Virus record (IMG/VR): IMGVR_UViG_3300017917_003016
Span: 1 to 64,000 of that record
DNA: 64,000 nucleotides
Strand: one strand, 5' to 3'
From: a virus
Lineage: Duplodnaviria > Caudoviricetes
In this document: in pieces, positions 11,534 to 48,485 of the stretch
Numbering within the stretch: position 1 is the first letter of the stretch
Layout of the letters: each line of letters opens with the position of its first letter
The notes under the pieces: generated by a model
Told to the model about the DNA's origin: nothing
Seen by the model: only the letters and a program-made list of their open reading frames with translations
Database searches by the model: none
Translations under genes and position numbers: made by a program

Positions 11534-11574
11534 TATTTATCGCCGTTGACAGTCATAGCATGCGATGTTATACT
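11534..11574. promoter_or_regulatory. Back-to-back promoters: late GATAAATA (minus strand, gp14) and sigma70-type TTGACA-N17-TATACT (plus strand)
   Basis: tatttatc at 11534-11541; TTGACA 11546-11551; TATACT 11569-11574. Confidence 0.75.
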
Positions 11575-11580
11575 TGCATT

Positions 11581-11853
11581 ATGGCTGAGATTCAAACTAG
11601 TTTAGATTGGCAAAAAACAGCGCAGACGCTGCAGATGACCTTGATACGAGTTCCAGAGGGACAGCCCAGAAGGCAATTGATTGACCATATGGTAAAAATA
11701 CAGACTATGGTTAGTGAACTAAGTAAAGAAGAAGTTAACTGCCGCCGCCGTCAAAAACAAACACTCAAACACAAAGAACAACTAACTAAAATAAACAAAG
11801 AAATAGACCAGTTGGAACAAATGATTACTTTTACAATGCTAGCAGGACGTTAA
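11581..11853 (+). CDS. Hypothetical coiled-coil protein
   Basis: MAEIQTSLDWQK...; start placed at the ATG just downstream of the sigma70 promoter. Confidence 0.6.
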   Translation: MAEIQTSLDWQKTAQTLQMTLIRVPEGQPRRQLIDHMVKIQTMVSELSKEEVNCRRRQKQTLKHKEQLTKINKEIDQLEQMITFTMLAGR

Positions 11854-11854
11854 T

Positions 11855-12040
11855 ATGAAGCACATATGGAATCAACCCTACGATCCCACTAACCGCTGGA
11901 ACGGCTGGGGTATCGCTAAGATTTCAGTGGCAAATCACACACGCCTGGTTGAACTGGATAGGTTAGAACCTATTGTTGATACTACAGAAGCGCAAGCAAT
12001 TCTAAGCAAATTTACTCTGGAGAACGGTAATGGCAATTAA
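11855..12040 (+). CDS. Hypothetical protein
   Basis: 61 aa, tightly packed between neighbouring genes. Confidence 0.55.
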   Translation: MKHIWNQPYDPTNRWNGWGIAKISVANHTRLVELDRLEPIVDTTEAQAILSKFTLENGNGN

Positions 12041-18500: not shown

Positions 18501-18887
18501 GTTTTACCTGGGGTTGGACTAGTCGCATACGGGCAAAAAACTCGCTACAGTACCGATAGCGCACTAGACCGTATAAATGTAGCAAGATTGGTTGTATATC
18601 TACGCACAATATTAGCCAAGGCTGCTGCTCCGTTTATATTTGAACCCAATGACGCTATTACACGTAGTCAAGTAAAAGCCGTGTTTGATGCAGTGTTTAA
18701 CGATTTGGTTGCAAAACGAGGCATTTACGACTTCCTAGTTGTGTGCGATACAACTAACAATACACCTACTCGTATAGACAACTACGAGTTGTGGATTGAT
18801 ATAGCAATTCAACCAGTTAAGGCTATTGAATTTATTTACATTCCGGTACGCCTACAAAATACTGGAGCAGCACTGACTATAAGTTAA
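15582..18887 (+). CDS. gp18: Tail sheath protein, T4 gp18-like
   Basis: LTSPGVSVSIID N-terminus; YPWFAPAGVRRG; GQKT; LDRINVARL; FIFEPND; IQPVKAIEFIYIP. Confidence 0.95.
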   Translation: MASLTSPGVSVSIIDQSQFAPTQAGTVPYVLIATAQDKQTPASTLAAGTTIANAEKIITVTSQRDLINTFGTPIFETDASGNPIQGSELSEYGLLAAYSALGVTNTIYVQRANVNLNELTGTSTRPTGIPADGTYWLDTGNTNWGVYTWSPENGFIQKTPTVITDTDYLSSGVPLSTFGVIGEYAVVATSSSNPIYYKGYDNSWTLVGSDSWKSVVPALIGNVASPTVTAGSKLIINGNVVTVAGTTVSSAASAINAAVIPGVSARVNSTSQLEIFVNSNTIIYSNAAGNLRGAIDTATSSEDTLQITKGSVLLGNLDCASNIGLLQDDINYGPSISNNGNTYTYNGPTIHFGAYTNPPAWRTTDVTPRPEDSVWLKTSATGNGANWAIKEYDANLDTWVQFSAPLYLNDSSAINALDPVSGGAGLAAGTLYVKYDTLATDTTTFRPYIKNVSGVLTITGTVAGGSATYVNGDSFRLDVSVPGSATLANATVTLSGTTASALVSGILGAGLPNIISGFNSSGAIYLRHLAGGTIQITQLVGSPLNTAGLLSDSHVQVISAGTIYLASPWTPLTYTYGDTEPFSNPAENTLWYYSNATEVDIMISDGTAWKGYRNVSNDARGYDLTDTDANGVIFSASQPTTQSDGTSQLAAGDLWIDTGDLANFPILYRYNGITWDLLDNADDVSANGIVFADARWSATGNVNVITDTLPTIESLLTSDHIDPDCPDYQLYPRGILLFNTRRSGYNVKRFKSNYFSDEQLATVNSSEADAWVTYSGEDPTTGVPYFGRKSQRSVVVRAMKAAIAESQTLREEGTQFNLICAPNYPELIQDMITLNNDRVNTAFIIGDSPIDLPSNSTALDNWSRNADLASDNGEDGLVSRSEYLGVYYPGGLATNLDGNSVVVPPSHIMLRTMIRSDAVSYPWFAPAGVRRGIIDNVSSIGYVDRADNDTYKSVGITTGLRDVLYRNDVNPLTVLPGVGLVAYGQKTRYSTDSALDRINVARLVVYLRTILAKAAAPFIFEPNDAITRSQVKAVFDAVFNDLVAKRGIYDFLVVCDTTNNTPTRIDNYELWIDIAIQPVKAIEFIYIPVRLQNTGAALTIS

Positions 18888-25311: not shown

Positions 25312-26883
25312 ATGAGTACAGCCAAGGGTACAGATAATGTTCTTGTTAAAAAGCCGCATACCAAATCTGCCTTTACACAAGAACAATTAGAAGAATTTGT
25401 AAAATGTTCAGATCCTATAACGGGTCCAGAATATTTTATGAGTCATTATTTCTATATACAACATCCTACCCGCGGTAGAATGTTATATTCTCCCTTTGAT
25501 TATCAAAAAAGATTAATACATACCTACCATAGTTATCGTTTTAGTATATCATTAATGCCTCGGCAAACAGGTAAGTCAACTAGTGCTGCGGGATATCTAT
25601 TATGGTATGCAATGTTTGTGCCTGATTCAACCATTCTAATTGCTGCACACAAATACTCAGGTTCACAGGAAATCATGCAGCGCATACGCTATGCCTACGA
25701 ATCTGTGCCAGACTTTATACGTGCCGGTGTTGTGAGTTATAACAAAGGTAGTATAGATTTTGACAATGGTAGCCGTATAGTTTCGGCCACTACAACAGAA
25801 AACACAGGGCGCGGTATGTCAATATCTCTGCTGTATGCTGATGAGTTTGCATTCGTCCGTCCAACTATCGGTAGAGAATTTTGGACATCTATTAGCCCAA
25901 CATTGGCCACTGGCGGTAAGTGTATTATTACGTCAACACCTAACTCAGATGAAGACCAGTTTGCCATACTATGGAAAGGTGCCAACAAATGTGTAGATGA
26001 ATATGGTGAGGCCACTGACATAGGCATCAACGGATTTAAAGCGTTTCGCAGTTATTGGAACGAGCACCCAGACCGCGATGATAAGTGGGCCACAGAACAA
26101 CGTGCTCAATTGGGGGATGAACGTTTCCGCAGAGAAATGGATTGTGAATTTATTATCTGGGATGAAACTTTAATCAGCCCAAGTTTTCTAGTAGAAATGG
26201 AAGGAGTCGATCCTATAGAACGGCAAGGTCATGTACGCTGGTACAAACGACCAGAACCGCAGTTTACCTATGCAGTGGCATTAGATCCTAGTTTAGGAAC
26301 TGGTGGAGATCCCGCGGGCATACAGGTTTTTGAATTACCCACGTTTAAACAAGTAGCAGAATGGCAGCACAATCGTACTCCTATACAAACACAAGTGGGT
26401 ATAATTGCAGAAATTACCAAATATCTAGCCGAAACGGTCAATCAAAATAATATCTACTACAGTGTTGAAAACAACACAGTGGGCGAAGCAGCACTTATCT
26501 GTATTAATGAAATTGGCGAAGAAAACATTCGTGGTATTTTTCTAAGCGAGCCTCGCGGTATGTCAGCCACTGGCCGCAGATATCGCAAAGGATTTAATAC
26601 AACAAACAAAACAAAAATTTCAGCCTGTGCTAAATTAAAGAATCTAATTGAAAGCCGGCGCATGACTGTGGTCAGTCGCAGCCTTATATCAGAACTCAAA
26701 ACCTTTGTAGCACAGGCGGCCAGTTATGCAGCCAAACCAGGTGAAACAGACGATTTGGTCATGAGCCTATTGCTGATTGTACGCATGGCTCAGGTCTTGC
26801 AGAGTTTTGACAGCCAACTTGACTATACTATGAAGGACAGTCTTGAGGATGTAGTTGAGCCCATGCCTTTCTATATACTCTAG
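25312..26883 (+). CDS. gp17: Terminase large subunit, T4 gp17-like
   Basis: Walker A PRQTGKS; LLYADEFAFV; IITSTPN; nuclease ALDPSLGTGGD and DDLVM. Confidence 0.95.
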   Translation: MSTAKGTDNVLVKKPHTKSAFTQEQLEEFVKCSDPITGPEYFMSHYFYIQHPTRGRMLYSPFDYQKRLIHTYHSYRFSISLMPRQTGKSTSAAGYLLWYAMFVPDSTILIAAHKYSGSQEIMQRIRYAYESVPDFIRAGVVSYNKGSIDFDNGSRIVSATTTENTGRGMSISLLYADEFAFVRPTIGREFWTSISPTLATGGKCIITSTPNSDEDQFAILWKGANKCVDEYGEATDIGINGFKAFRSYWNEHPDRDDKWATEQRAQLGDERFRREMDCEFIIWDETLISPSFLVEMEGVDPIERQGHVRWYKRPEPQFTYAVALDPSLGTGGDPAGIQVFELPTFKQVAEWQHNRTPIQTQVGIIAEITKYLAETVNQNNIYYSVENNTVGEAALICINEIGEENIRGIFLSEPRGMSATGRRYRKGFNTTNKTKISACAKLKNLIESRRMTVVSRSLISELKTFVAQAASYAAKPGETDDLVMSLLLIVRMAQVLQSFDSQLDYTMKDSLEDVVEPMPFYIL

Positions 26884-31957: not shown

Positions 31958-32412
31958 TGTGGTATAGCCGGGTAGTAGCCAGTCTTGCTGCAATACCTGA
32001 TTTCATAGCCCATTATGAATCAGAACTTGATCAAGCCAAACGAGAAGTTGGCACATATGGCAACATTGAGAAGAATCTAGCAAACCTTCCGGGCATTACC
32101 GAACATCGATTTAATCAACTGCAGGAAATTGAAGCAGTGCTGAATTATCTTAATATTCAACTGCGAAAGATTCGTAAGAAGCATTTTCAAAAATACCTTG
32201 AGGCCTACCAACGAGCACTAACGTCGAGAGACGCTGAAAAATATGTTGACGGAGAAGATGAAGTCATTGATTTTGAAACTATTATCAATGAGGTTGCACT
32301 TCTACGTAACAAATGGTTAGGTATCATGAAGGGATTAGAAAGCAAGAATTTTATGCTAGGGCATATCACACGTCTACGCACGGCTGGTATGGAGGATGCC
32401 AGTATTGGTTGA
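31957..32412 (+). CDS. uvsY: Recombination mediator UvsY-like
   Basis: KYLEAYQRALTSRDAEKYVDGE...GIMKGLESKNFMLGHITRLRTAGMED; adjacent to uvsX. Confidence 0.8.
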   Translation: MWYSRVVASLAAIPDFIAHYESELDQAKREVGTYGNIEKNLANLPGITEHRFNQLQEIEAVLNYLNIQLRKIRKKHFQKYLEAYQRALTSRDAEKYVDGEDEVIDFETIINEVALLRNKWLGIMKGLESKNFMLGHITRLRTAGMEDASIG

Positions 32413-33316
32413 GAGGCATAGTTTGTCTATTTTAAGCCTGTTGCAACAGTATGAGGTCTTTTTAGAAAGTCTCAAACATATCGCTGATATGGGTTGCGGC
32501 AGCGGTGCCGATATAGATTGGTGGGCTACCTTAGAAAACAGCGAGAATCCCCCAGAACCTTATAATTTCAATTGCTTTGCTGTAGACCGCAGTTCGTCAA
32601 AATTAGCACAGGTCCCAAATCGCAAAAATATACATAAAATAAACAATTCCTATGATGCAGAATTTTTATTTCCTGTTCCTATAGATTTTATTTGGGCACA
32701 CGACTCTCTGCAGTACAGCACCGATCCGTTGCATACCCTGCGCAGATGGAATAGTTATATGAATACCAATGGTATGTTAGTTGTAACGGTTCCGCAGCAC
32801 ACAGGAATTGAGTATGGCCGTCAATACAGCAGAGCATACAATGGTTGTATATATCATTATACTCCACTGATGTTAATCTATATGCTAGCAGTAAACGGAT
32901 TTGATTGTAGGGATGCGTATCTGCTAAAACGCTGGCAAGACCCTTGGATTCAAATGGCAGTGTACAAATCAGACGTTCCGGCAATGGATCCAGCAACAAC
33001 TACATGGTTTGACCTAGCAGATAAAAATTTACTACATCCTAGTATTGTCAATAGTTTAAATTCCAATGGATTTATCAAGCAAGAAGAAATTTTAATGCCG
33101 TGGTTAGACAAAGAACTTTATTTTATAGACTACGTTAGTCAACGAATGGAAACTCCTCCGGCCACTGAAACCACTGGTGTTATAAATGACGATGTTACTC
33201 GATCTGACAGAATCAGTATTGAACAACCTAAAGAAGCAGTGCGAGCAACTGAAATATTAAAGCCGCGGCCATTGTTAAATAAACCACCAACACGTAAGAG
33301 TTATAAAAATGCCTGA
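32396..33316 (+). CDS. Class I SAM-dependent methyltransferase
   Basis: IADMGCGSG motif I; DFIWAHDSLQY; NGMLVVTVP. Confidence 0.8.
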   Translation: MPVLVERHSLSILSLLQQYEVFLESLKHIADMGCGSGADIDWWATLENSENPPEPYNFNCFAVDRSSSKLAQVPNRKNIHKINNSYDAEFLFPVPIDFIWAHDSLQYSTDPLHTLRRWNSYMNTNGMLVVTVPQHTGIEYGRQYSRAYNGCIYHYTPLMLIYMLAVNGFDCRDAYLLKRWQDPWIQMAVYKSDVPAMDPATTTWFDLADKNLLHPSIVNSLNSNGFIKQEEILMPWLDKELYFIDYVSQRMETPPATETTGVINDDVTRSDRISIEQPKEAVRATEILKPRPLLNKPPTRKSYKNA

Positions 33317-33746
33317 GAAAATTGTTCTAGTAACCGGCGGTTTTGATCCTATTCATTTAGGGCATATTGAATATTTTACCGAGGCTAAACGTTTAGGGGA
33401 TAAACTAGTAGTAGGAGTCAATTCTGATTCTTGGCTAACACGCAAAAAAGGCAAGGCATTCATGCTTAGATATGATCGCATGCGCATAATTTCTAATTTG
33501 CGCATGGTTGACTATGTCTTAGAATTCAACGACGACGACGATACGGCTAATCATGCTATAAAACTAACCAAACAGACTTGGCCTACAGCAGAAATTATCT
33601 TTGCCAATGGGGGCGACAGAAACAAAGGTAATATTCCGGAAATGTCTATAGAAGGCGTTGAATTTGTATTTGGTGTTGGCGGGACTATCAAAAGATCCAG
33701 CAGCAGTAAGTTGTTAGATGAATGGTGCAGGAATTTCGATAAATAG
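33309..33746 (+). CDS. Cytidylyltransferase-like (RfaE domain II / TagD family) nucleotidyltransferase
   Basis: VTGGFDPIHLGH (HxGH); VVGVNSD; FANGGDR; SSS terminal motif. Confidence 0.88.
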   Translation: MPEKIVLVTGGFDPIHLGHIEYFTEAKRLGDKLVVGVNSDSWLTRKKGKAFMLRYDRMRIISNLRMVDYVLEFNDDDDTANHAIKLTKQTWPTAEIIFANGGDRNKGNIPEMSIEGVEFVFGVGGTIKRSSSSKLLDEWCRNFDK

Positions 33747-35814: not shown

Positions 35815-36852
35815 ATGTCTAAACATCTTAAATTTTTGCTAGTTTATGGCGCTATATTATTTGGCGCCATAAATTATACTAGCATGGAAATTCATCAAAT
35901 ATTTGCCTTGTTGGCAGCACCCGCCTTATGGGCAGTGTTTGAACTAGCAAAAATTACCAATGACGTTAAGGTAAAAATAGCCCAGGCTATAGCCTACAGT
36001 GTAGCCGCCGGCACACTAATTTGGTTTTGGGATCTAAAACTATTTTTAGTAGCCTTGTTTTTAGGTTGGATATTGTTTGGTCTGGGAGTTAGTATTTGCC
36101 TACATAAATGGGCTAGCCATAAAACATTTGTACCTAAAAATAGATTTTACAAATGGTTAATTTTATGGTTTGGAACCATTTGTACACTGGGAAGTACTGT
36201 AAGTTGGGCTGCCGGTCATCGCAAGCATCATCAATATACAGATAAAGAGGGTGATCCTCATAGACCGGCTGGAAATTTCTGGCACAAGGTCAAAGTATAC
36301 TTTTATTATTTTCCCACTTATCACATTAGTCCGATGATCATCAAAGATCTAACGTCAGATGTAGATCATAAGTGGTTTCATAAAAACTATTACATCATAA
36401 TCTACAGTTATGCACTATCTTTGTTAATGATAGGTCCAGAATATTTAGGTTATTTCTATGCATTACCAGTTTTATATGTTTTTACTGGAATTAGTTGGGT
36501 AACTGTCATTGCTCATATTCCCAGCACCGGACGTTTTGGTTATCGAAGTGATACCTATCGAATTTATAACAGCGATGATTATACCTATAATAGCCATGTG
36601 TGGCAATTTCTATTAATGGGGGAAGGATATCATAACACACACCATGCTTGTCCTTGGTTATGGAACAATGCTGTATTGCCAGGGGAATTTGATATTAGTG
36701 CTAAGATTATCAAATTGATTGGCAATCCTTATGATAAACCTCCTAGTCCCTTTGTTGATGTTCGCCGCGGAAAAAAATTGTGGGAAGAAATTGCCATGGT
36801 TAAAGCAAAGAATACAATTGATGACCGTCCGGAAAAACTGCGCGATACTTAA
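35815..36852 (+). CDS. Membrane fatty-acid (delta-9-type) desaturase 1
   Basis: Three His boxes HKWASH, HRKHH and GEGYHNTHH; multiple hydrophobic segments; late promoter at 35800-35807. Confidence 0.88.
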   Translation: MSKHLKFLLVYGAILFGAINYTSMEIHQIFALLAAPALWAVFELAKITNDVKVKIAQAIAYSVAAGTLIWFWDLKLFLVALFLGWILFGLGVSICLHKWASHKTFVPKNRFYKWLILWFGTICTLGSTVSWAAGHRKHHQYTDKEGDPHRPAGNFWHKVKVYFYYFPTYHISPMIIKDLTSDVDHKWFHKNYYIIIYSYALSLLMIGPEYLGYFYALPVLYVFTGISWVTVIAHIPSTGRFGYRSDTYRIYNSDDYTYNSHVWQFLLMGEGYHNTHHACPWLWNNAVLPGEFDISAKIIKLIGNPYDKPPSPFVDVRRGKKLWEEIAMVKAKNTIDDRPEKLRDT

Positions 36853-37554
36853 ATGCAAATAAAACCTATTGCTCTCATTGGTTATAGATCTGGCTTAGAT
36901 TTGTTTATTGAAACAGCAGATGAACTTGGAATAGAAATAGCAGGAATATATGACAAATATTTTTATGGGAATACTAGTCATCTAGATAGCATTCCAGTCA
37001 TCGGTAACGAGGAAAATATTTCTGATCAAGAAAAAAATCTTTACAATTTTATTCTTTCTAGCGGTAATGCCGGCCATTACAATCCAAAAAATCCAGAACA
37101 CAGTGGAGATAATCTAAGACGCACTAGAATAAAACTCATGCGCGAGCAAAAGTTACCATTGACAAATTTGATAAGTAAACACGCATATATTAGCCCAAAA
37201 ACAAAACTAGGTAGCAGTATAGTAATTGCTCGCGACTGTTATGTTCGAGCCAAAACAACAATTAACGATTTTTGTTATCTAGATAGTGGATCAGCAGTGG
37301 CACACGATGTTATTTTAGGAGAAAATGTTATATTGGCTCCCTACAGTTTTGTGGGCGGGCACGTATGCATAGGTAATAATGTAATGATAGGCGCCGGCAG
37401 CATGGCTATAAACGGGTATCATGATAAATCTTTAGAAATTGGCAATGATGTCAAAATTATGGCTGGGAGCATGATTATGAGAGATGTGCCCAACGGAAAA
37501 TTTGTACATAATAGTGGTAGAATGATTCAACGATTAGATTACAAAAAGGATTAG
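36853..37554 (+). CDS. Hexapeptide-repeat sugar O/N-acetyltransferase (PglD/NeuD-like)
   Basis: N-terminal Rossmann-like IALIGY; left-handed beta-helix repeats; AVAHDVILGENV. Confidence 0.85.
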   Translation: MQIKPIALIGYRSGLDLFIETADELGIEIAGIYDKYFYGNTSHLDSIPVIGNEENISDQEKNLYNFILSSGNAGHYNPKNPEHSGDNLRRTRIKLMREQKLPLTNLISKHAYISPKTKLGSSIVIARDCYVRAKTTINDFCYLDSGSAVAHDVILGENVILAPYSFVGGHVCIGNNVMIGAGSMAINGYHDKSLEIGNDVKIMAGSMIMRDVPNGKFVHNSGRMIQRLDYKKD

Positions 37555-37560
37555 TTAATA

Positions 37561-38847
37561 ATGGACTATAAAATAGCAGATATAAATTTAGCCCCATGGG
37601 GACATCGAGAAATAGCCATTGCGGAAACAGAAATGCCGGGGCTAATGAGCGTCCTAGAAGAATATCGCGCCCAGCAACCTCTTAAGGGCGCACGTATAGC
37701 AGGCAGTCTGCACATGACCATACAGACCGCAGTATTGGTCAAGGTTCTAGTTGCATTGGGCGCAGAAGTTCGTTGGTCAAGTTGTAACATTTTTAGTACA
37801 CAAGACCATGCAGCAGCAGCCCTGGCAGATCTAGGTATACCTGTGTTTGCTTGGAAAGGTGAAACAGAAGAAGAATATTGGTGGTGTATAGAACAGACTA
37901 TACAAGGCCCCAACGGTTGGAAGCCCAACATGCTGCTAGATGATGGGCATGATCTTACTTGGTGGGTACATCAGAATCGTCCTGATTTATTAGACAATAT
38001 CATAGGAGTTACAGAAGAAACTACTACAGGTATACATAAGATACGTGAAGCACAGGCCCGCGGCGAGTTCCGCCTGCGTGCTATCAATGTCAACGATTCA
38101 GTAACAAAATCAAAGTTTGACAACCTTTATGGTTGCAGAGAAAGTCTAGTGGACGGCATCAAACGTGCAACAGATGTTATGATTGCTGGTAAGATTGCAG
38201 TGGTTGCAGGATTTGGTGATGTAGGCAAGGGCAGTGCTGCTGCGTTGCGAGCATTGAGTGCCCAGGTCTGGGTAACTGAAATAGATCCTATCTGCGCACT
38301 ACAAGCAGCCATGGAAGGATATCGTGTGGTCACCATGGATTGGGCTGCTGACAAAGCAGACATATTCGTTACTGCCACAGGCAACATCGATGTGATTACA
38401 CACGACCACATGGCAAAGATGAAGCATAACGCCATAGTGTGCAATATAGGCCACTTTGACAGTGAAATTGATATTACTAGCCTAGAAAAGTATGAGTGGG
38501 AAGAAATTAAACCACAGGTTGATCACGTGATATTCCCAGACGGTCGTCGTATTATTGTGCTAGCCAAAGGACGCCTGGTAAATCTAGGCTGTGCAACAGG
38601 GCACCCTAGTTACGTTATGAGTAACAGTTTCACTAATCAGGTCATAGCACAGATAGAACTGTATACCAACTATAAAAATTATGAGGTTGGTGAACTATAT
38701 CTGCTGCCCAAAAATTTAGACGAACTAGTGGCTAAATTACATCTAAAGAAAATTGGTGCAGAGTTAACTAATTTAACCTATGAACAGGCAGAATACATAG
38801 GAGTTGAGGTACATGGCCCATACAAGCCAGACACCTATCGTTATTAG
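37561..38847 (+). CDS. ahcY: S-adenosylhomocysteine hydrolase
   Basis: [14 protein letters not shown]; SCNIFSTQD; EETTTG; [14 protein letters not shown]; GFGDVGKG; [11 protein letters not shown]; [10 protein letters not shown]. Confidence 0.98.
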
Positions 38848-38913: not shown

Positions 38914-38985
38914 GATGTAGCAGTAAGGGGATGCTGCGGGTGCAGGTCTCACAAGTAAACTCGCTTATTTAAAAGGAGAACGCAA

Positions 38986-39177
38986 ATGTTTACAGTTGAT
39001 TATGCAGTTGAGCAAGGTGTTAAGAACGCCAAGACCGTTAGTGCTTTGATTACAAACAAGGAACTTCGTACTGAAGTTGACCGTTTCATTGATGCACAGG
39101 CCGAATATACTAAGACTCTAGTAGAATCAGTGACTAAGATCGGCAAGGCATTTTACGGTTCTGTAGCGACCAAGTAA
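38986..39177 (+). CDS. Phasin-like small amphipathic protein
   Basis: 63 aa, helical, FIDAQAEYTKTLVESV pattern; strong AAGGAG RBS; PhaR-like site upstream. Confidence 0.5.
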   Translation: MFTVDYAVEQGVKNAKTVSALITNKELRTEVDRFIDAQAEYTKTLVESVTKIGKAFYGSVATK

Positions 39178-39197
39178 TTGTATACTTGATCAATACC

Positions 39198-39220
39198 AAG
39201 CCCGCTATATGCGGGCTTTT
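39198..39220 (+). terminator. Rho-independent terminator
   Basis: AAGCCCGC-tatat-GCGGGCTTTT. Confidence 0.85.
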
Positions 39221-39232: not shown

Positions 39233-39250
39233 TTGTAATAATAGTGTAAT
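39233..39250 (+). promoter_or_regulatory. Putative Pho box
   Basis: TTGTAAT-AATA-GTGTAAT, 11-bp-period direct repeat resembling CTGTCAT-A(A/T)A(T/A)-CTGT(C/A)A(C/T). Confidence 0.4.
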
Positions 39251-39301
39251 TGATTTTCAAGTAAATATAAAGTAAGTTATAAGATTATTGAAAGGGTGTC
39301 G

Positions 39302-39403
39302 ATGATTGAAATTTTCTTAGGAATTCTAGGAGAAGCATTGCAAGAAATAGGGGTATATCTTATGGTTCTTGTTGCTGCATCAATATGGAACATTTCAAAT
39401 TAA
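39302..39403 (+). CDS. Small hydrophobic peptide (33 aa)
   Basis: MIEIFLGILGEALQEIGVYLMVLVAASIWNISN; AAAGGG RBS; not in the ORF track. Confidence 0.45.
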   Translation: MIEIFLGILGEALQEIGVYLMVLVAASIWNISN

Positions 39404-39427
39404 AAAACAAATTTGTATTTGATTACC

Positions 39428-39457
39428 CAAGGGGTACTGCTTCGGTAGTACCCCTTG
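39428..39457 (+). other. 13-bp stem with C(UUCG)G tetraloop upstream of the plcP-like gene
   Basis: CAAGGGGTACTGC-TTCG-GTAGTACCCCTTG; no U-tract follows. Confidence 0.8.
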
Positions 39458-39476
39458 TCACATTGTGAGATAAAAA

Positions 39477-40304
39477 ATGGAGCAGAACAAAACATATAAA
39501 ACAATCTGTATATCAGATGTTCACTTGGGCAGCAAAGATTCACAGGCTTCGTTGCTGAATAATTTTCTCAAGAACAACAGTTGCAGCCATCTCTTTTTAG
39601 TAGGGGACATAATCGACGGTTGGAAAATACAACAAAACAAGTGGCGCTGGAAACAGAGCCACTCAAATGTAGTGCGCCGCGTTTTGGGAATGGCTAAACA
39701 CGGTACTAAAGTTACTTACATTACAGGCAACCATGACGAATTTTTAAGACCTTTTGTTACCAATGCATTTTTAATGGGTAATATTACAGTGGTTAATCAG
39801 GCAGAATATCGCGACACTGACGGCAATCTTTATCTGTTAACACATGGCGATATGTTTGATGGAATTACTCGAGCAGCCAAATGGTTAAATCTTCTCGGTG
39901 ACAAAGCCTATGATTTTGTATTGTGGATTAATACACATTTCAATTGGTGGAGGCATAGATTTGGTTTTGGCTATTGGAGCCTAAGTAAATTTCTCAAGCA
40001 CAGAGTAAAACGTGCGGTAAATTTCATTTTTGAATTTGAATCAGTACTAGTCAACTATTGTCGTAAAAGAGGATTTGATGGGGTTATCTGTGGGCACATA
40101 CACACTCCAGAAATAAAAACTATCGATGGGATAAACTACATGAACTGCGGCGATTGGGTAGAAAGTTGTTCTGCCTTGGTAGAACACTGGGATGGCCGTT
40201 GGGAAATAGTCTATTGGACAAAGGAGCAAGAAGATGTGGTTATTGCTTTTAACAGCAGTGCACGTGAACAATCCAAACGACATACCAGCAAAAATGTGGC
40301 TTGA
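39477..40304 (+). CDS. PlcP-like metallophosphoesterase (LpxH-related phospholipase C)
   Basis: SDVHLG, GDIIDGW, GNHD, HGD, CGHIH and NCGDWVES motifs; paired with a GT4 gene. Confidence 0.8.
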   Translation: MEQNKTYKTICISDVHLGSKDSQASLLNNFLKNNSCSHLFLVGDIIDGWKIQQNKWRWKQSHSNVVRRVLGMAKHGTKVTYITGNHDEFLRPFVTNAFLMGNITVVNQAEYRDTDGNLYLLTHGDMFDGITRAAKWLNLLGDKAYDFVLWINTHFNWWRHRFGFGYWSLSKFLKHRVKRAVNFIFEFESVLVNYCRKRGFDGVICGHIHTPEIKTIDGINYMNCGDWVESCSALVEHWDGRWEIVYWTKEQEDVVIAFNSSAREQSKRHTSKNVA

Positions 40305-40388
40305 ATTTGAGTCACAAGAATCATGCGAACGTGCTCTTGGCACTATGACTTTTTGGGTTAAATTTCCAGCATTTAAGGTAACAGGAAC

Positions 40389-41396
40389 ATGCACAAAAAA
40401 ATCTTAATCATAACTGATAATCTAAGGGACCAAGTAAATGGCGTTGTCACCACGTTCAAAAATCTTGAGAGTCTGGCTGTTCGTTCTGGTTATAGTCTTG
40501 TTTATATTGATCCCGGGCAGTTCCCTCATATTAATTGCCCTGGTTATCCTGAAGTTAAGTTATCCTGGCCTTGGGGTATTGGAAAAAAGATTGCGGCGGT
40601 GGCTCCGGATCATATACATATCGCTACGGAAGGTCCATTAGGCCTTGCTGCCAGAATCTGGTGCGACCGTAATGGCAAGACCTATAACACCAGTTATCAT
40701 ACTAAATTTCCTGAGTTTTTAGAGCGTTTGTATAATTTTCCTCGTTCTTGGTCCTATTGGTATATGCGTTGGTTTCACAAACATTCGGGGAAGGTTCTTA
40801 CTACCACACAAACTATGGTAAGAGAACTTAAATCACATGGATTCAGTGACAATGTCGTAAGTTGGACACGCGGAGTAGATAAAAAAGTCTTTAGCGATAA
40901 ACTAAGAAGCCCAGAAGTAAATGGTCATCCCATATTGTTAAGTGTTGGTCGTGTTAGCCGAGAAAAAGGTCTTGATGATTTTTGTCAATTAGATGTCCCA
41001 AACGCAACCAAAGTAATTGTAGGTAATGGTCCTTATCGTGCAGAATTAGAGAAAAAATATCCTAATGTAATGTTTGCAGGGTCAAAGTTTGAGCATGAAC
41101 TAGCAGAATATTATGCCAATGCTGATGTATTTGTTTTTACTAGCCGTGTGGACACGTTTGGTATAGTAATGATCGAAAGTCTAAGTTGCGGTACTCCTGT
41201 TGCAGCCTATCCTGTGCCGGGCCCGATAGATATCGTTGAAAACGGTGTTAACGGATACCTGTCTGATGATCTAAATCAAGCCATTCAACAGTGTTTGACC
41301 ATAAGTAGAAAGCAGGTTTATAAATCTAGCCAAAAGTGGACTTGGGAAAATTGTTGGCAGATATTTCATGATAACCTTGTGCCTTCTAAATTTTAA
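40389..41396 (+). CDS. GT4 glycosyltransferase, Agt-like glycolipid synthase
   Basis: ILIITD...QVNGVVTT; HIHIATEGPLG; SVGRVSREKGL; DTFGIVMIESLSCGTPV. Confidence 0.82.
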   Translation: MHKKILIITDNLRDQVNGVVTTFKNLESLAVRSGYSLVYIDPGQFPHINCPGYPEVKLSWPWGIGKKIAAVAPDHIHIATEGPLGLAARIWCDRNGKTYNTSYHTKFPEFLERLYNFPRSWSYWYMRWFHKHSGKVLTTTQTMVRELKSHGFSDNVVSWTRGVDKKVFSDKLRSPEVNGHPILLSVGRVSREKGLDDFCQLDVPNATKVIVGNGPYRAELEKKYPNVMFAGSKFEHELAEYYANADVFVFTSRVDTFGIVMIESLSCGTPVAAYPVPGPIDIVENGVNGYLSDDLNQAIQQCLTISRKQVYKSSQKWTWENCWQIFHDNLVPSKF

Positions 41397-41453: not shown

Positions 41454-41479
41454 ACAAAACCCACTTGCGTGGGTTTTGT
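41454..41479. terminator. Bidirectional-type terminator hairpin
   Basis: ACAAAACCCAC-ttgc-GTGGGTTTTGT. Confidence 0.8.
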
Positions 41480-41580: not shown

Positions 41581-41646
41581 ATGTTTGAAATTGTAATCGC
41601 GCTCATAATGGTAGGACTGTTTTGGGCATCATTTGGAAATATTTAA
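41581..41646 (+). CDS. Small hydrophobic leader peptide (21 aa)
   Basis: MFEIVIALIMVGLFWASFGNI; AGGAG RBS; not in the ORF track. Confidence 0.5.
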   Translation: MFEIVIALIMVGLFWASFGNI

Positions 41647-41657
41647 AGGAGAAATCA

Positions 41658-42092
41658 ATGAAACTAGTAGGAACAAAGACAGAGCAGCATCTTAAGGACG
41701 CATTTGCAGGTGAATCAAAGGCTAACCGCCGCTATCTATACTTTGCCAACATGGCTGACATTGTAGGCGCACCAGATGTCGCTAACATCTTTCGACATAC
41801 TGCTGAAGGTGAAACCGGCCACGCCCACGGGCATATGGAATACCTAATCAAGGGTGGTTCAGGCGACCCCGAAACTGGCCTTCCGGCCAATGATATCGTT
41901 CAAGCACTGGAAAGTGCTATTCACGGCGAAACACACGAGTACACTGACATGTATCCGAGCATGGCCCGTGATGCACGTGACGAAGGCTTTGACGAAATCG
42001 CTGATTGGTTTGAAACACTGGCCAAGGCAGAGCGCAGCCATGCTGGCAAATTCCAACGCACTCTTGACGCTTTTGTTAAAGAGAACGCATGA
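41658..42092 (+). CDS. Rubrerythrin (short form without rubredoxin domain)
   Basis: [16 protein letters not shown]; [10 protein letters not shown]; [10 protein letters not shown]; AERSHA diiron ligands; start after AAGGAG. Confidence 0.92.
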
Positions 42093-42679
42093 TGCTAACT
42101 CGCGACGACTTATGGAGTTTAGAAGAATATAGTCAGGTTCGCGAGGAATTCAAACCTGCTGCAGCAGCACATCGCAAACTGCGGCAGGTCAGTATTGGCG
42201 ACCATATGACTATTAGTTTTGAAGATCAGTTTACCGTCAAGTATCAGATTCAAGAAATGCTGTTGATAGAAAAAACTTTTACTGCAGAAGGTATTCAAGA
42301 TGAACTTGACGCATACAATCCTCTAATTCCTACAGGCACCAATCTTAAGGCTACACTGTATATTGAGTACAGTGATCCAACAGAGAGAGCACAGCGCCTC
42401 AAAGATCTTAAACGTGTTGAGGATCGAGTTTTTATAAAAGTCGGTAATTATCAAGCAGTCTATGCCATTGCGGACGAAGATATGGATCGAAGTAATCTGG
42501 ACAAGACTAGCGCAGTACATTTTCTAAGATTTGAACTTACTGAGCCAATGATTACAGCCTTAAGACACGGTGTCAACTTGGATGTTGGAGTGAATCATCC
42601 TGCTTATCCTGTGATTGCAACTGTATCTGATCAAACTCGTGATGCGTTAGTGCAGGATTTTGATAAAGAAATTGCTTGA
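42089..42679 (+). CDS. DUF3501-like protein
   Basis: FE...[13 protein letters not shown]...[13 protein letters not shown]...[12 protein letters not shown]; coupled to rubrerythrin. Confidence 0.8.
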
Positions 42680-42726: not shown

Positions 42727-43464
42727 TTAATTTGTATTAATACGCATTAATCCTAACATAGCGAAAAACCTAACATACCAATACCCTAGATCAAACTCAA
42801 ACCATTTCATGGCTAGATTTAGTCTGTTAGGATTTAAATGATGGTTTGCATGAAGTTCTTCGCCGGCTAGTAAAATGCCAATTGGGAACATATTTACTGC
42901 TTTTCCTGAATTGGGTAGTTTTACATATCTAAATCCCAACTTATGGGTGCCCCAATCTGCAGTTAAAATAACAATATCTGTTATAAAAAATCGATGGATA
43001 GCACCAATTATAAATCCAGATATACCAAACAGCAGAGTATATATTCCCCACAGGATAGTTAACCCTAACGTTGGGTGTTTTTGATAAAATTGTTCAATTT
43101 GGCTAGTGTCCGTTTTTATTTCGGGAGCATAAGTGGCTAAATCTTTAGGACCGATGAATCGAGGTTTGTTCGGGTCATTATGTTTGTAGTCGAGCAATTC
43201 CCTAAGGGATTGTAAATGAGGACTACACGGGTCTTCTTTTTGATCGCTAAATCTATGATGTTTTCGGTGCAAAGCACACAAATGTTGTTGCCAGTTTTGA
43301 TAGGCTAAGCCCATCACTACCCATAAAATAAACCTAAACACTATTGCTAAATTTTTATCAATAACATATTGCTTATGTATAATCGATCGGTGAACTAGTA
43401 GGCTAAATGTTGCCCATAGAAGATGATAACAAAGAAGAAAAAATAATATAGAGTTTATCACCAT
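42727..43464 (-). CDS. Membrane fatty-acid desaturase 2
   Basis: His boxes HRSIIH, HRKHH and GEELHANHH; WFEFDLG; late promoter AATAAATA on the minus strand at 43482-43489. Confidence 0.85.
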   Translation of the reverse strand: MVINSILFFLLCYHLLWATFSLLVHRSIIHKQYVIDKNLAIVFRFILWVVMGLAYQNWQQHLCALHRKHHRFSDQKEDPCSPHLQSLRELLDYKHNDPNKPRFIGPKDLATYAPEIKTDTSQIEQFYQKHPTLGLTILWGIYTLLFGISGFIIGAIHRFFITDIVILTADWGTHKLGFRYVKLPNSGKAVNMFPIGILLAGEELHANHHLNPNRLNLAMKWFEFDLGYWYVRFFAMLGLMRINTN

Positions 43465-43572
43465 TGGATCCAATTGAAAAATATTTATTTTAAAGAAACA
43501 ATTGTTTGTTGACTATTGGAAAATTTTCTGTTAAACTAAAAAAGTTAACACTAACCTAAATAAGGAACAAAC

Positions 43573-43800: not shown

Positions 43801-44826
43801 ATGTCAAAAACCGTCTTAGTGACTGGTGGTGCTGGATTCGTTGCACACCATGTCATTGAAAAAATCCTGCGTGAAACCGATTGGAATGTAGTAAGTTTAG
43901 ACCGATTGGACTTTTCCGGAAATCTTAATCGCTTGTGGGACATGGCTCAGGATTTGGATACCACCACTCGTAAGCGCATACGTGTAGTATTCCATGATTT
44001 GCGAGCGGATCTAAACCCGTTGGTACGCCGAGAAATTGGCAAGGTTGACTATGTACTGCATCTGGCTGCAGGTAGTCATGTGGATCGATCAATTGAATAT
44101 CCCATGGAATTTGTTTTAGACAATGTAGTTGGAACCTGTAATGTCCTAAACTATGCTCGTGACCTAGACGGTTTAGAACGATTCATTTATTTCTCAACTG
44201 ATGAAGTATTTGGTCCTGCGCCCGTCGGTGTGGACTACAAAGAGCGAGATCGTTACAACAGTTCTAATCCATATTCTGCCACTAAAGCCGGCGGCGAAGA
44301 ACTAGCCGTGGCTTTTGAAAATACCTATAAGTTGCCGATCTACATCACACATACTATGAATGTGTTTGGTCAAAGACAGCACCCGGAAAAATACATTCCC
44401 ATGTGTATTCGCAAGGTACACGATGGTGATACCATTACTATTCACTCAGACGCTACACGAACAATTCCAGGAAGTCGCCACTATATTCATGCTGCAGATG
44501 TGGCAGATGCTATGTTGTTCTTGTTGAATCTACGGGCAACTTTGGAAGAAGATCACGGCGGAGCCAAATGCCCTAAGTTTAATCTAGTAGGGGCTGAAGA
44601 AATCAATAATCTAGCATTAGCACAGTTAATTGCGGATGTGCAAGGAAAACCACTGCACTATGAAATGGTTGATTTTCACTCAAGCCGGCCTGGGCACGAT
44701 CTGCGCTATAGCCTTAGTGGAGAATACATGAAGAGCCTAGGATGGGTTCCTAGGGTTGCACTTAGCCAACGTATTGGTGAAGTAGTGAATTGGACTTTGG
44801 CCAATGAACGTTGGCTGCGAACTTAA
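43801..44826 (+). CDS. rfbB: dTDP-glucose 4,6-dehydratase-like NDP-sugar dehydratase
   Basis: TGGAGFVA; HLAAGSHVDRSI; STDEVFG; YSATK; HPEKYIP; RPGHDLRY; late promoter at 43754-43761. Confidence 0.9.
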   Translation: MSKTVLVTGGAGFVAHHVIEKILRETDWNVVSLDRLDFSGNLNRLWDMAQDLDTTTRKRIRVVFHDLRADLNPLVRREIGKVDYVLHLAAGSHVDRSIEYPMEFVLDNVVGTCNVLNYARDLDGLERFIYFSTDEVFGPAPVGVDYKERDRYNSSNPYSATKAGGEELAVAFENTYKLPIYITHTMNVFGQRQHPEKYIPMCIRKVHDGDTITIHSDATRTIPGSRHYIHAADVADAMLFLLNLRATLEEDHGGAKCPKFNLVGAEEINNLALAQLIADVQGKPLHYEMVDFHSSRPGHDLRYSLSGEYMKSLGWVPRVALSQRIGEVVNWTLANERWLRT

Positions 44827-44835
44827 AGGACAGAC

Positions 44836-45576
44836 ATGAGCAAGAATATTGTATTTTTAACTTCTGCGGTTTATACTAATTATGGCATTTATAACCCGCA
44901 AGAACGTATTAAGCAAACACTAGAAACAGCACAGAGTGCCAGAAAGTACATTCCTGACTGCAAGATAATTCTTGTGGACAACAGTAAGGTTGACGTGCAA
45001 AATGACGATAGTGCAGAATTTAATGAACTCATCGATACTGTAGATTACTATATCGACAACAGCGACGATAGCGACATTCAGTATTTTCATAACAATGTTG
45101 CAAACTACGATATTGGCAAAAATGCTATGGAAGCCATGGGCCTGCTCAAAGCCCTGACGTTTATCTATAATGACAGCGATATGATGCAGGAAATCAATCA
45201 AGCGTCTCGCATTTTTAAACTCAGTGGCAGATATTCAGTAACTGACAAGTTTGATATTACCAAATTTGATAATCCTTCAACTCAAGACAAGTACGTGTTT
45301 AAAAAGGCTCAGCCAAGTTGGATTAATCCACAAGACACTGGAGTAAATACCTTGCTTCAGACTCGTCTTTGGAGTTTTACGCCAAGCCTGTACCTAGAAA
45401 CCATGCAGATGTATAGTCATATTATTGAAAATATGATTAATTTATTCAATGCAGGCAAGTATATTGACAATGAGCACAGCATGAGCAAGTTTATTCCTCG
45501 CAATAAACTGGTAGAATTAGAAACGGTAGGTCTAATGGGCAACATTGCTCCTAATGGCATGATGATCATCGATTAA
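44836..45576 (+). CDS. Putative glycosyltransferase-like protein
   Basis: IVFLTSAV...RIFKLSGRY pattern; inside the sugar cluster. Confidence 0.45.
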   Translation: MSKNIVFLTSAVYTNYGIYNPQERIKQTLETAQSARKYIPDCKIILVDNSKVDVQNDDSAEFNELIDTVDYYIDNSDDSDIQYFHNNVANYDIGKNAMEAMGLLKALTFIYNDSDMMQEINQASRIFKLSGRYSVTDKFDITKFDNPSTQDKYVFKKAQPSWINPQDTGVNTLLQTRLWSFTPSLYLETMQMYSHIIENMINLFNAGKYIDNEHSMSKFIPRNKLVELETVGLMGNIAPNGMMIID

Positions 45577-46499
45577 TGAAGAATGTACTGTTATTAGGGG
45601 CAAATGGATACATAGGGTCTCGTCTTAAGCAGATCTTAAATTTTGCCCACTGTGTAACTGCAATTGATATTGGTTGGTTTAGTCGTGTTGATGACTGCGT
45701 GGTTTCTGACTACAGACATCTGACTAACAGCGAACTTAAAAAGTTTGATGTAATTATCGTTTTGGCAGGTCACAGTTCAGTAAAAACCTGCGAAGGGCCC
45801 ATGCAAAGTCCATGGTTGAACAATGTGACCAATTTTACAGATCTCTTGGCAAAAACGGACGATCAACTGATAATTTACGCTAGTTCTGCCAGCGTGTACG
45901 GCAATAGTCTGCCGGGACAAAAGCATCGCGAAGAGGTGCAGCGGTTTGTCCCTGTTAATAACTATGATGTTACTAAGTATGTGTTAGATCTGCATGCAGA
46001 AGCGGCCTTGTTGCAGGGACGTAAAATCATAGGTCTTCGATTTGGTACGGTTAACGGTTGGTCATCGATTCTGAGAACCGATGTTATGATCAATGCCATG
46101 TATGAAACTGCAGTGCGCAGCGGTAGCATACAGGTGACCAATAGTCATATCAGTCGAGCCATTCTAGGTATCGAAGATCTTTGCCGAGCCATTGATACTT
46201 GTATCAAAAATCCTGTGCCGGGTATTTACAATCTTGCAAGTTTTAATTTAACAGTCAGTGAAATTGCCAACGCTGTGTCAGACAAGTTAGATGTTCGTTT
46301 GGTTGACAACGGTTTGCTGGGCAATGCCTATGATTTTAGTCTAGACACTCAACTGTTTGAAACTACTTATAATTTCAAATTCAAAGAAACACCCGATAGC
46401 ATACTTCAGAGTTTAGTTGAAAAATATTCAACAGCAAAAACTCAAAGACGTGACCAATATATCTACTATAACTGGACGGAAAAAAATGACATCGAATAA
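45576..46499 (+). CDS. NAD-dependent epimerase/dehydratase (SDR)
   Basis: LLGANGYIGS; YASSASVYG; YDVTK; GLRFGTVNG. Confidence 0.9.
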   Translation: MKNVLLLGANGYIGSRLKQILNFAHCVTAIDIGWFSRVDDCVVSDYRHLTNSELKKFDVIIVLAGHSSVKTCEGPMQSPWLNNVTNFTDLLAKTDDQLIIYASSASVYGNSLPGQKHREEVQRFVPVNNYDVTKYVLDLHAEAALLQGRKIIGLRFGTVNGWSSILRTDVMINAMYETAVRSGSIQVTNSHISRAILGIEDLCRAIDTCIKNPVPGIYNLASFNLTVSEIANAVSDKLDVRLVDNGLLGNAYDFSLDTQLFETTYNFKFKETPDSILQSLVEKYSTAKTQRRDQYIYYNWTEKNDIE

Positions 46500-47706
46500 C
46501 TGTAAAGAACTAACAGAATGCCTGTGCTGTGGTAGCCGCTCTCTAAAAGAAGTACTAGATTTAGGCGAGCAGCCAATGGCCAACAGTTTTATAACATCAC
46601 CTGACGAATCAGAATTGACCTTTCCTCTGCGCCTTAATCTCTGCTCGGGATGTACGCATCTGCAACTTAGCCACGCAGTAAATCCAGATCTATTGTTTAA
46701 AAATTATCTCTATGTCAGCGGTACTAGTCAAACTCTTCGCGACTATTTTGATTGGTTCGCTAATTTTACTTTGCAGTATTTTAAAAATCGTCCTAAAGCA
46801 GTTTTAGATATTGCCTGCAATGACGGTAGTCAATTGAATTCTTATAAGAGTCTTGGTCTCAGAACATTTGGTATTGATCCAGCAGAAAATCTACATAAGA
46901 TCAGTTCTGCCAACCATATGGTTGTCTGCGATTATTTCAGCGACAAACACATTGATGAATTCAAACAACACAAATTAGATATAATTACTGCGCAAAATGT
47001 TTTTGCACACAATAGTTATCCTTTAGATTTTCTTAAGATTTGCAAAGAAATAATGCATGACGAAAGTGTGTTGTTTATTCAAACTAGCCAAGCAGATATG
47101 GTAAAGAACAACGAGTTTGACACCATCTATCATGAGCATCTGAGTTTTTTCAACAGTATGAGTATGAATGCACTAGTAAGTCGCGCTGGCCTGCACTTGG
47201 TTGACATCGTCAAAACCCCTATACACGGCAACAGTTACGTATTTGTTATTCAAAAGAATCCAAGTAATACCGAATTGGTAGACCAGATGCTGCGTAATGA
47301 ACGTGAATTGGGATTACAAAATCTGCAGACCTATAGTGAATATGCAGAAAAGTGTATTAATGTAATTGAAGATCTTAAACAAACGATAATGCACTATCGA
47401 CTGCTGGACTACCATATAATTGGGTATGGTGCTGCTGCAAAAGGTATGACTTTGATTAACTTTGGTGATCTTCATTTAGATTATGTAATCGATGACAATC
47501 CTTTGAAACAAGGAAGATTTTGCCCAGGTAGTCACATACCTGTAGTATCAATTGATATCCTTGACAGCCTGTCTTCAGATGCAAAAGTAGCATTTATACC
47601 ACTAGCATGGAATTTCTTTAGTGAAATTCGAGACAAAATTAAAATCAAAAGAGACAAAACAGAAGATGTTTTTATACGGTATTTCCCTAAAATTAACATA
47701 GAATAA
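46486..47706 (+). CDS. NDP-hexose C-methyltransferase
   Basis: N-terminal CxCC...C Zn site; LDIACNDG; NVFAH; FDTIYHEH; GYGAAAKG; DDNPLKQG. Confidence 0.88.
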   Translation: MTSNNCKELTECLCCGSRSLKEVLDLGEQPMANSFITSPDESELTFPLRLNLCSGCTHLQLSHAVNPDLLFKNYLYVSGTSQTLRDYFDWFANFTLQYFKNRPKAVLDIACNDGSQLNSYKSLGLRTFGIDPAENLHKISSANHMVVCDYFSDKHIDEFKQHKLDIITAQNVFAHNSYPLDFLKICKEIMHDESVLFIQTSQADMVKNNEFDTIYHEHLSFFNSMSMNALVSRAGLHLVDIVKTPIHGNSYVFVIQKNPSNTELVDQMLRNERELGLQNLQTYSEYAEKCINVIEDLKQTIMHYRLLDYHIIGYGAAAKGMTLINFGDLHLDYVIDDNPLKQGRFCPGSHIPVVSIDILDSLSSDAKVAFIPLAWNFFSEIRDKIKIKRDKTEDVFIRYFPKINIE

Positions 47707-48485
47707 TGCGAACACTAATATCTCATTTTTACAATGAAGAATATCTACTACCGTGGTTCCTAAACCACCACAAGCAGATCTTTGATCATGGCATAATGAT
47801 CGACTATCATTCAACTGATCGATCAGTTGAAATAATCAAAGAAATTTGTCCCACGTGGGACATCGTAACTAGTCGTAATAATGATTTCCAGGCCGACATG
47901 ATCGATGTAGAAGTCAATGAAATTGAAAAACAAATCAGTGGTTGGAGAATTTGTTTAAATGTAACTGAGCAGTTGATTGGCGATTATTCTATCCTAGATG
48001 ATCAACCTAGACAATTATTGATACCTAGTGTATTTTTTGTTGATTGTGATAGAGATCGCCATGTTACACATGATTTACCACTTTACGACCAAAAAACACA
48101 TGGATTTATGTTTGGCGATAGTCCGCAAAACTTTTTAGAACGCCGTAGTCGAAGTCTGCACAACATTCCTGTGCACTATCCTGCTCAGAGTACTCCGCAG
48201 TGTATGGCTCCGGGTCGTCACTGGAATTCATACAATACAGACAAACTAGTGACATTTTACTACGGTTGGTGTCCATTTGACGATGGCGGCATAGCACGTA
48301 AACTACAAATACAGACTCAAATACCTTTGATTGACCGTCAACGTGGTTGGGGATTTCATCATATTACCAACAAGGAAACCCTAACCTGGAGATTGGAAAA
48401 TGAATTCGTACCCAGAGCCAGAAATATTGCCAAGGAAATAGAACCTTATGTTACCAAACATAAAAGTCTTACAAATTTATTATAA
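47706..48485 (+). CDS. GT2-like glycosyltransferase
   Basis: HFYNEEYLLPWFLNHH...IMIDYHSTDRS motif. Confidence 0.7.
   Translation: MRTLISHFYNEEYLLPWFLNHHKQIFDHGIMIDYHSTDRSVEIIKEICPTWDIVTSRNNDFQADMIDVEVNEIEKQISGWRICLNVTEQLIGDYSILDDQPRQLLIPSVFFVDCDRDRHVTHDLPLYDQKTHGFMFGDSPQNFLERRSRSLHNIPVHYPAQSTPQCMAPGRHWNSYNTDKLVTFYYGWCPFDDGGIARKLQIQTQIPLIDRQRGWGFHHITNKETLTWRLENEFVPRARNIAKEIEPYVTKHKSLTNLL

Follow-up and report, generated by a model that had tools for sequence, protein, structure and literature searches.

A virus-borne plcP-agt-like gene pair behind a Pho-box-type operator, a probable phage copy of a bacterial lipid-renovation operon

We analyzed a 64-kb window of DNA from a giant, uncultured phage of a lake; the window is the first part of the IMG/VR virus record IMGVR_UViG_3300017917_003016 (201,732 bp). 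Within it, a gene for a PlcP-like metallophosphoesterase is followed on the same strand, after a short gap, by a gene for an Agt-like glycosyltransferase of family GT4. This stretch is probably the bacterial plcP-agt operon for lipid renovation in a phage-borne copy, organized as one transcription unit that would run from an operator at 39233 to a terminator at 41479. In phosphate-stressed bacteria, PlcP splits phospholipids into diacylglycerol and a phospho-headgroup, and a sugar is added to the diacylglycerol by Agt (PMC4796936, PMC9239053, PMC13691135). The phage copies keep the needed residues, the operon form and a phosphate-type operator; we therefore infer that the pair does in an infected, phosphate-short cell what the bacterial pair does. 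The phage probably frees phosphorus from the host membrane when phosphate is scarce. The pathway and both protein families are already known in bacteria; a literature search for plcP or agt in a virus found no paper describing either.

The pair is phage-borne, because the window also encodes a tail sheath (1101 residues, 15582-18887) and a large terminase (25312-26883), the record is a virus record, and the G+C content of the plcP-agt stretch is that of its surroundings. Phage genes lie on both sides of the pair. The long sheath, the terminase and other encoded virion proteins identify the phage as a large myophage. CheckV puts the completeness of the record at 56%, which suggests a complete genome of ∼360 kb.

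Identity of the two proteins

The plcP-like protein carries the motifs SDVHLG, GDIIDGW, GNHD, HGD, GHIH and GDWVES. Its metal-binding set is complete (D14/H16, G43-D44, G84-N85-H86-D87, H123 and G206-H207-x-H209) and invariant in 20 homologues. The first-pass annotation of this DNA, made from the letters and their reading frames, had described a metallophosphoesterase with GNHD and GDWVES; the open reading frame (ORF) has both motifs, together with a Pfam Metallophos domain (Table 1). It had also preferred a PlcP-like enzyme to LpxH, and every test made here favors that choice: the cut-offs of hidden Markov models, phylogeny, bacterial paralogy, the GNHD motif and the identity to a Kordiimonas protein. 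On the NCBIfam LpxH equivalog models the phage protein scores 44.6 bits (cut-off 134) and 31.9 bits (cut-off 190.35). Three gamma- and betaproteobacterial genomes with a close homologue each have a separate true LpxH gene (220-303 bits on the LpxH model); the PlcP-like paralogues of two of them reach 37 and 49 bits, and that of the third gives no match. The PlcP-like protein of Kordiimonas scores 54 bits, and its genome has no true LpxH hit. The score of the phage protein falls in the low range of these bacterial PlcP-like paralogues. At the aligned position GNHD is found in all PlcP-like proteins and GNRD in all true LpxH proteins (E. coli b0524 and three others).

In the comparison with known PlcP, a homologue from Kordiimonas gwangyangensis DSM 19435 (E 6e-93) served as a proxy for an experimentally characterized enzyme, which makes the link an indirect one. 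This bacterium is listed as a PlcP carrier with an Agt neighbor (PMC4796936, Suppl. Table S2), and the operational PlcP criterion of the same study is a BLASTP E < 1e-40 to MED193_17359 (PMC4796936). The phage protein is 51% identical to the Kordiimonas homologue (E 6e-93), against 20% identity over 129 residues to E. coli LpxH (E 2e-5). LpxH has been used as the outgroup to PlcP (PMC9239053, Fig. 3D legend). In our maximum-likelihood tree a 100/100 branch separates four LpxH proteins, from E. coli and three others, from 35 PlcP-like proteins. The phylogeny against LpxH that had been asked for thus places the phage protein apart from LpxH. The protein falls in a clade of phage-contig and metagenome proteins (97/99, starred in the tree), which stands beside a group containing a clearly cellular contig.

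Searched by sequence against solved structures, the PlcP-like protein had no match at E ≤ 0.01. The closest solved fold to its AlphaFold2 model (predicted local distance difference test, pLDDT, 77.5) is LpxH, at 17-21% identity and a template modeling (TM) score of ∼0.5. The di-metal core is common to the model and LpxH, and so are two long inserted helices, which correspond to the LpxH lipid cap. By these criteria the first gene is a predicted PlcP-family di-metal phosphoesterase with an LpxH-like helical lipid cap, and not LpxH. LpxH itself was considered and rejected on the scores below model cut-offs, the 100/100 branch, the GNHD motif and the true LpxH paralogues that coexist with PlcP-like genes.

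The agt-like protein begins with MHKKILIITDNLRDQVNGVV. It had been noticed as a GT4 enzyme starting ILIITD...QVNGVV, and the reading frame is as described, with both Pfam GT4 domains. Over its whole length it is 43% identical to the GT4 adjoining plcP in K. gwangyangensis (E 6e-88), and it is 38-55% identical, at full length, to the plcP-linked GT4 proteins of about 45 bacterial loci. The glycosyltransferase of K. gwangyangensis, GTcp of SAR11 and Agt of Agrobacterium (Atu2297) form one GT4 clade, whose members are 46-58% identical to one another and < 25% identical to GT4 enzymes outside it (bioRxiv 10.1101/2021.03.25.437072). We infer that the plcP-linked GT4 of K. gwangyangensis is the clade member that this study named GT_kg.

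GTcp has a His104-Asp256 dyad and the motifs GRVAxEKN and FPSxTDTFG. Its essential residues are Gly16, Gly82, Gly85, Arg190, Lys195, Thr257, Phe258, Gly259 and Glu264, and mutants of the diacylglycerol contacts His104, Thr162, Arg163 and Trp320 are inactive (all bioRxiv 10.1101/2021.03.25.437072). In the phage protein every one of the mapped catalytic, uridine diphosphate (UDP)-binding and diacylglycerol-contact residues is kept. The catalytic and UDP-binding counterparts are H104, D255, G18, G82, G85, R188, K193, T256, F257, G258 and E263; they include the motifs GRVSREKG (R188, K193) and FTSRVDTFG (T256, F257, G258). The diacylglycerol-contact counterparts are H104, T160-R161 (in WTRGVD) and W319. 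In a 20-sequence alignment the mapped residues stand in invariant columns, except D255, which is nearly invariant, and T160.

The AlphaFold2 model of the GT4 protein (pLDDT 93) has the two Rossmann-like halves of a GT-B fold. Its top reviewed structural matches (TM 0.85-0.91) are corynebacterial and mycobacterial MgtA, plant SQD2 and alpha-monoglucosyl-diacylglycerol synthases, all of them enzymes acting on diacylglycerol lipids. Sequence and model support the assignment of the second gene as a GT4 diacylglycerol glycosyltransferase of the Agt/GTcp clade, membership being assigned by identity and residues. The earlier preference for an Agt-like enzyme over other GT4 proteins is borne out by the GTcp residue motifs, the plcP-agt synteny and the Kordiimonas identity.

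Conserved gene order, operator and leader

The plcP-agt order is the "type 2" arrangement of PMC4796936. At about 45 of 80 bacterial loci, a full-length GT4 homologue lies immediately 3' of the plcP-like gene on the same strand. PlcP-like relatives are encoded by at least 592 IMG/VR stretches, the best 80 of which are the basis of our viral-locus counts. A GT4 gene lies within 5 kb of the plcP-like gene in 39 of these 80, and most of the 80 have further genes in common with other parts of this phage's genome. Related giant-phage contigs carry the same pair at 69-72% identity, with S-adenosylhomocysteine (AdoHcy) hydrolase, a 63-codon gene and an RmlB-like gene as conserved neighbors; among the matches listed, the closest relative reaches 84%. 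Many related phage contigs retain the pair, at differing genomic positions and without loss of catalytic residues.

The first gene occurs without the second in two isolated phages, pelagiphage Mosig and Synechococcus phage S-SRM01, where its annotation is LpxH-type. In Mosig the homologue and a phosphate ABC transporter gene stand back to back. A DNA-level search of isolated phages recovered one short match, to Mosig, and a protein search of isolated phages with the GT4 recovered no Agt-type match (best 31% identity).

Some relatives carry additional genes at the locus. In contig L002 a RimK ATP-grasp gene (8844-9740) lies between plcP and agt, and an acyltransferase of PF13444, which we take to be the family of the aminolipid synthase OlsB, lies downstream (11573-12223). 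In the closest relative, L179, a PAP2 lipid phosphatase adjoins the pair (5030-5593, minus strand). No homologues of the PAP2, RimK, PF13444 acyltransferase or pstS genes of the relatives were found in this phage record.

The promoter region of the unit follows the terminator of the upstream gene and reads, in order, TTGTAAT-AATAG-TGTAAT, 11 nt, TAAATA. The double half-site TGTAAT-N5-TGTAAT has a single copy in the window and a single copy in the 201.7-kb record. In related phages the box and TAAATA blocks are kept, and the rest of the spacer has diverged. The repeat is far beyond chance, because it is the single site of the whole record and is conserved in relatives; the Pho-box-like repeat pointed out in the first-pass annotation is thus real. 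The operator is under selection across related phages.

In 1.74 Mb of loci the box pattern is matched 64 times, versus 2 for a reversed-pattern control. Among the 64 boxes, 38 precede plcP-like genes and about 16 precede pstS, with the identity of the box-linked pstS confirmed by Pfam PBP_like_2 (120-126 bits). The box is followed by TAAATA in 44 cases (reversed control 0), and in 43 of the 44 the spacer is exactly 11 nt. Bacterial contig L009, with a plcP 68% identical to that of the phage, has a canonical TGTCAC-N5-TGTCAC, 11 nt and TAAATA in the same place, and TGTCAT-type boxes stand upstream of plcP in many alphaproteobacterial loci. A caveat attached to the repeat at the outset was that it lacks a good -10 element at the canonical 10-bp distance and is followed by a late-like GTAAATA. 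The concern over the distance is answered, because the 11-nt distance to TAAATA is fixed in the class and is common to pstS and to a canonical-box bacterial plcP.

The box was also considered as a general phage promoter and rejected, because it is unique in the window and in the record. TAAATA alone is widespread. Over the whole record it is enriched 20-40 nt upstream of genes, with 70 of its 156 copies within 120 nt upstream of the 227 ORFs, and may serve this phage as a general promoter element. No PhoB-type regulator is encoded in the record, which points to host PhoB as the predicted reader of the promoter. The phoH gene of the record (192237-192857) has no Pho-type box.

Other genes were seen behind the same type of box. 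Related contig L101 (6905-7862) has a second, unrelated metallophosphoesterase with it; the present phage has a 50%-identical copy of that gene (record 107438-108253, minus strand) without a box. A protein of ∼215 residues that begins MRFEDLAARL and has no family match stands behind the same box in three viral loci (L141 4227-4950, L142 6917 and L156 3315), and may be an unknown member of a phage phosphate-starvation gene set.

Terminator hairpins bound the unit on both sides (Table 1). In relatives a hairpin is kept at the position of the upstream one, and its sequence differs. The leader holds a 33-codon hydrophobic ORF (39302-39403) and, just 5' of the plcP ribosome site, a 13-bp hairpin with a UUCG loop (39428-39457). 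Its fold energy is -55.2 kcal/mol (z = -3.7). In the three relatives examined the distance from TAAATA to the ATG is 24-54 nt. The leader has no copy elsewhere in the genome and no homologue in the loci of relatives. No Rfam family reaches threshold on it; a match to Trp_leader is just the terminator.

Table 1. Features of the plcP-agt unit, with positions in the 64-kb window
Feature	Position	Strand	Description
Intrinsic terminator of the upstream 63-codon gene	39198..39218	+	5' boundary of the unit; 8-bp G+C-rich stem, then T run
Pho-box-like operator	39233..39250	+	Direct repeat of the half-site TGTAAT (39234-39239, 39245-39250), centres 11 bp apart
-10-like element TAAATA	39262..39267	+	11 nt after the box
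Leader	39268..39476	+	∼210 nt between TAAATA and the plcP start
plcP-like gene	39477..40304	+	275 aa; Pfam Metallophos 53 bits; predicted to release diacylglycerol and phospho-headgroup
agt-like gene	40389..41396	+	335 aa; Pfam Glycos_transf_1 88.6 bits, Glyco_transf_4 54.3 bits
Two-way terminator hairpin closing the unit	41454..41479	.	11-bp stem; found by minus-strand scan

Genes around the pair

The pair sits in an island of lipid and sugar genes comprising two fatty-acid desaturases, rubrerythrin/DUF3501 and sugar-nucleotide enzymes. The record holds three desaturase genes: two in the window (35815-36852, plus strand; 42727-43473, minus strand), which flank the pair, and one at record positions 137621-138322 (minus strand). 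In nine other viral loci, weak homologues (28-31%) of the desaturase at 42727-43473 lie a few kb or less from plcP. This recurrence suggests a wider membrane-lipid theme in these phages. The rubrerythrin and DUF3501 genes stand directly 3' of agt (41622-42679). In bacterial contig L009 the genes for PlcP, a GT2, rubrerythrin and rubredoxin are consecutive, and rubrerythrin may therefore be a travelling companion of plcP.

A set of sugar-nucleotide and methylation genes surrounds the pair (window 32396-33746, 36853-38847 and 43801-48485). Among its members are a methyltransferase, a cytidylyltransferase, a NeuD-type acetyltransferase, the AdoHcy hydrolase, the RmlB-like dehydratase, an epimerase, a C-methyltransferase and a GT2-like gene. 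Related phages conserve the 63-codon gene upstream (38986-39177) at 60%; the gene matches no known family and has a terminator to itself. The leader of this gene (within 38925-39218) gives a weak match to ROSE_3, at 19 bits against a threshold of 43.

Predicted role, alternatives and known systems

In the proposed mechanism, phosphate starvation of the host would lead phosphorylated host PhoB to bind the box and switch the unit on. PlcP would then cleave membrane phospholipids (phosphatidylethanolamine, phosphatidylglycerol or phosphatidylcholine) to diacylglycerol and a phospho-headgroup, and Agt would combine the diacylglycerol with a UDP-sugar to give glucosyl- or glucuronosyl-diacylglycerol. 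Because Agt would convert the diacylglycerol to glycolipid, the membrane should stay intact. The headgroup phosphate, once freed by phosphatases, would feed nucleotide synthesis for a phage genome of ∼360 kb. By a rough estimate, the few million phospholipids of a small cell would hold the phosphorus of several such genomes. Phosphorus for DNA synthesis can reasonably be taken as the probable benefit, being the one most consistent with the link to pstS.

Several observations weigh against this mechanism. PlcP releases phospho-headgroups rather than orthophosphate, and no phosphatase adjoins the pair. No pstS is present in the record, which is ∼56% complete. The half-sites read TGTAAT, versus the canonical TGTCA(T/C), and the exact TGTAAY box with TAAATA is absent from 301 sampled genomes of the order to which one homologue carrier, a member of the Burkholderiaceae, belongs. 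Since TAAATA is enriched upstream of many phage genes, a phage-specific form of the polymerase could read the promoter regardless of phosphate. Finally, only this phage has a ∼210-nt leader with a strong hairpin between promoter and plcP.

The enzymes could also act as described and yet benefit the phage through changed membrane properties instead of phosphorus supply, which we regard as rather unlikely. The altered membrane could prolong the survival of the starved infected cell, block superinfection via receptors, set the timing of lysis, or tune fluidity together with the phage desaturases. The position of the pair in the lipid and sugar gene island and the desaturase homologues near plcP in nine viral loci fit such a role, and bacterial lipid remodeling is reported to change phage attachment and grazing (PMC9938194, PMC9457565). 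However, the operator is common to pstS, and Mosig pairs its gene with a phosphate transporter; these two links tie the module to the phosphorus economy. The two kinds of benefit are not mutually exclusive. It is very improbable that the cassette is a recent passenger from a host, or an assembly chimera, with no role in infection. Its bacterial origin, with the nearest non-phage sequences at 65-68% identity, would suit a passenger, but the phage copies form a clade of their own, the starred one, and many related phage contigs hold the pair at different positions with its catalytic residues intact. The selection on the operator across related contigs, the phage genes on both sides and the matching G+C content speak against a passenger as well. 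Scarcely credible, in turn, is an LpxH-type UDP-2,3-diacylglucosamine hydrolase paired with a GT4 for lipopolysaccharide or cell wall, by which the phage would modify the synthesis of lipid A or lipopolysaccharide. Homologues are automatically named "LpxH" and "glycosyltransferase involved in cell wall biosynthesis", and LpxH is the nearest solved fold. Against these names stand scores far below the LpxH cut-offs, paralogy to a true LpxH in the same genomes, the 100/100 branch and GNHD in place of GNRD, and the GT4 keeps all residues of the diacylglycerol-dependent GTcp clade.

Beyond the single operon that we favor, a wider proposal can be put forward tentatively, at somewhat short of an even chance. 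A large group of freshwater giant phages may run its own small phosphate-starvation regulon of pstS, plcP, agt and sometimes a further phosphoesterase or PAP2 lipid phosphatase, with a Pho-box variant specific to phages (TGTAAY, a rigid 11-nt spacer and TAAATA) as its control element. Under host phosphate stress it would turn the phospholipid membrane into a glycolipid one and pass the freed phosphorus into genomes of several hundred kilobases. If this is true, viral infection would directly drive the shifts from phospholipid to glycolipid that have been measured in lakes and seas poor in phosphate.

In many lakes and oceans, phage production is held back by a shortage of phosphorus. The known phage phosphorus genes pstS, phoA and phoH are related to uptake or poorly understood. 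If the reading proposed here is true, phage PlcP-Agt represents a different strategy, in which the phosphorus store of the host membrane is dismantled and the membrane is kept intact. Host Pho control of phage genes is known in the case of pstS and phoA, and with the conserved operator it can be tested whether a host nutrient sensor reads these phage genes too. The phage gene is named lpxH in public records and in at least one viral survey (a Lake Baikal table, PMC9611531). Under this annotation, as the lipid A gene lpxH, plcP is misfiled under lipopolysaccharide synthesis in surveys of viral metabolic genes, and correct naming would alter the tally of what viruses contribute to lipid and phosphorus cycling.

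Bacterial PlcP-Agt operons have been described in Phaeobacter sp. MED193 and SAR11 HTCC7211 (PMC4796936), in Methylosinus trichosporium OB3b (PMC9239053) and in Burkholderia cenocepacia (BCAL2364-2366; PMC13691135). The phage unit resembles them in the protein families, their order and strand, the short gap, the Pho-box-type operator upstream and the predicted chemistry, from phospholipid through diacylglycerol to glucosyl- or glucuronosyl-diacylglycerol. It differs in being virus-borne, in its TGTAAT half-sites, in having no dagK and in its extra 210-nt structured leader.

The first protein is like LpxH in its calcineurin-like di-metal fold and inserted helical lipid-binding cap, and phage copies have been deposited under that name (Mosig, S-SRM01). 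Unlike LpxH, it has GNHD where LpxH has GNRD, shares only 17-21% identity with it, falls below the model cut-offs, has a different operon partner and corresponds to a separate paralogue in the same genomes. The second protein is close in length to GTcp of Pelagibacter sp. HTCC7211 and Agt (Atu2297) of Agrobacterium tumefaciens (335 versus 334 aa). It has their GT-B fold and His-Asp dyad, and keeps both UDP-sugar motifs and the diacylglycerol-contact residues. Where the GTcp/Agt consensus is GRVAxEKN and FPSxTDTFG, the phage enzyme reads GRVSREKG and FTSRVDTFG.

Cyanophage pstS and phoA are reportedly driven by the host PhoBR system, a result credited to Zeng and Chisholm (2012). The phage plcP-agt unit is like these genes in that a function of the phosphorus economy is predicted to stand under the host's phosphate-starvation regulator, and related contigs carry pstS with the same box. 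The cyanophage genes serve uptake from outside the cell, whereas phage plcP-agt would free phosphorus that is already built into the host membrane.

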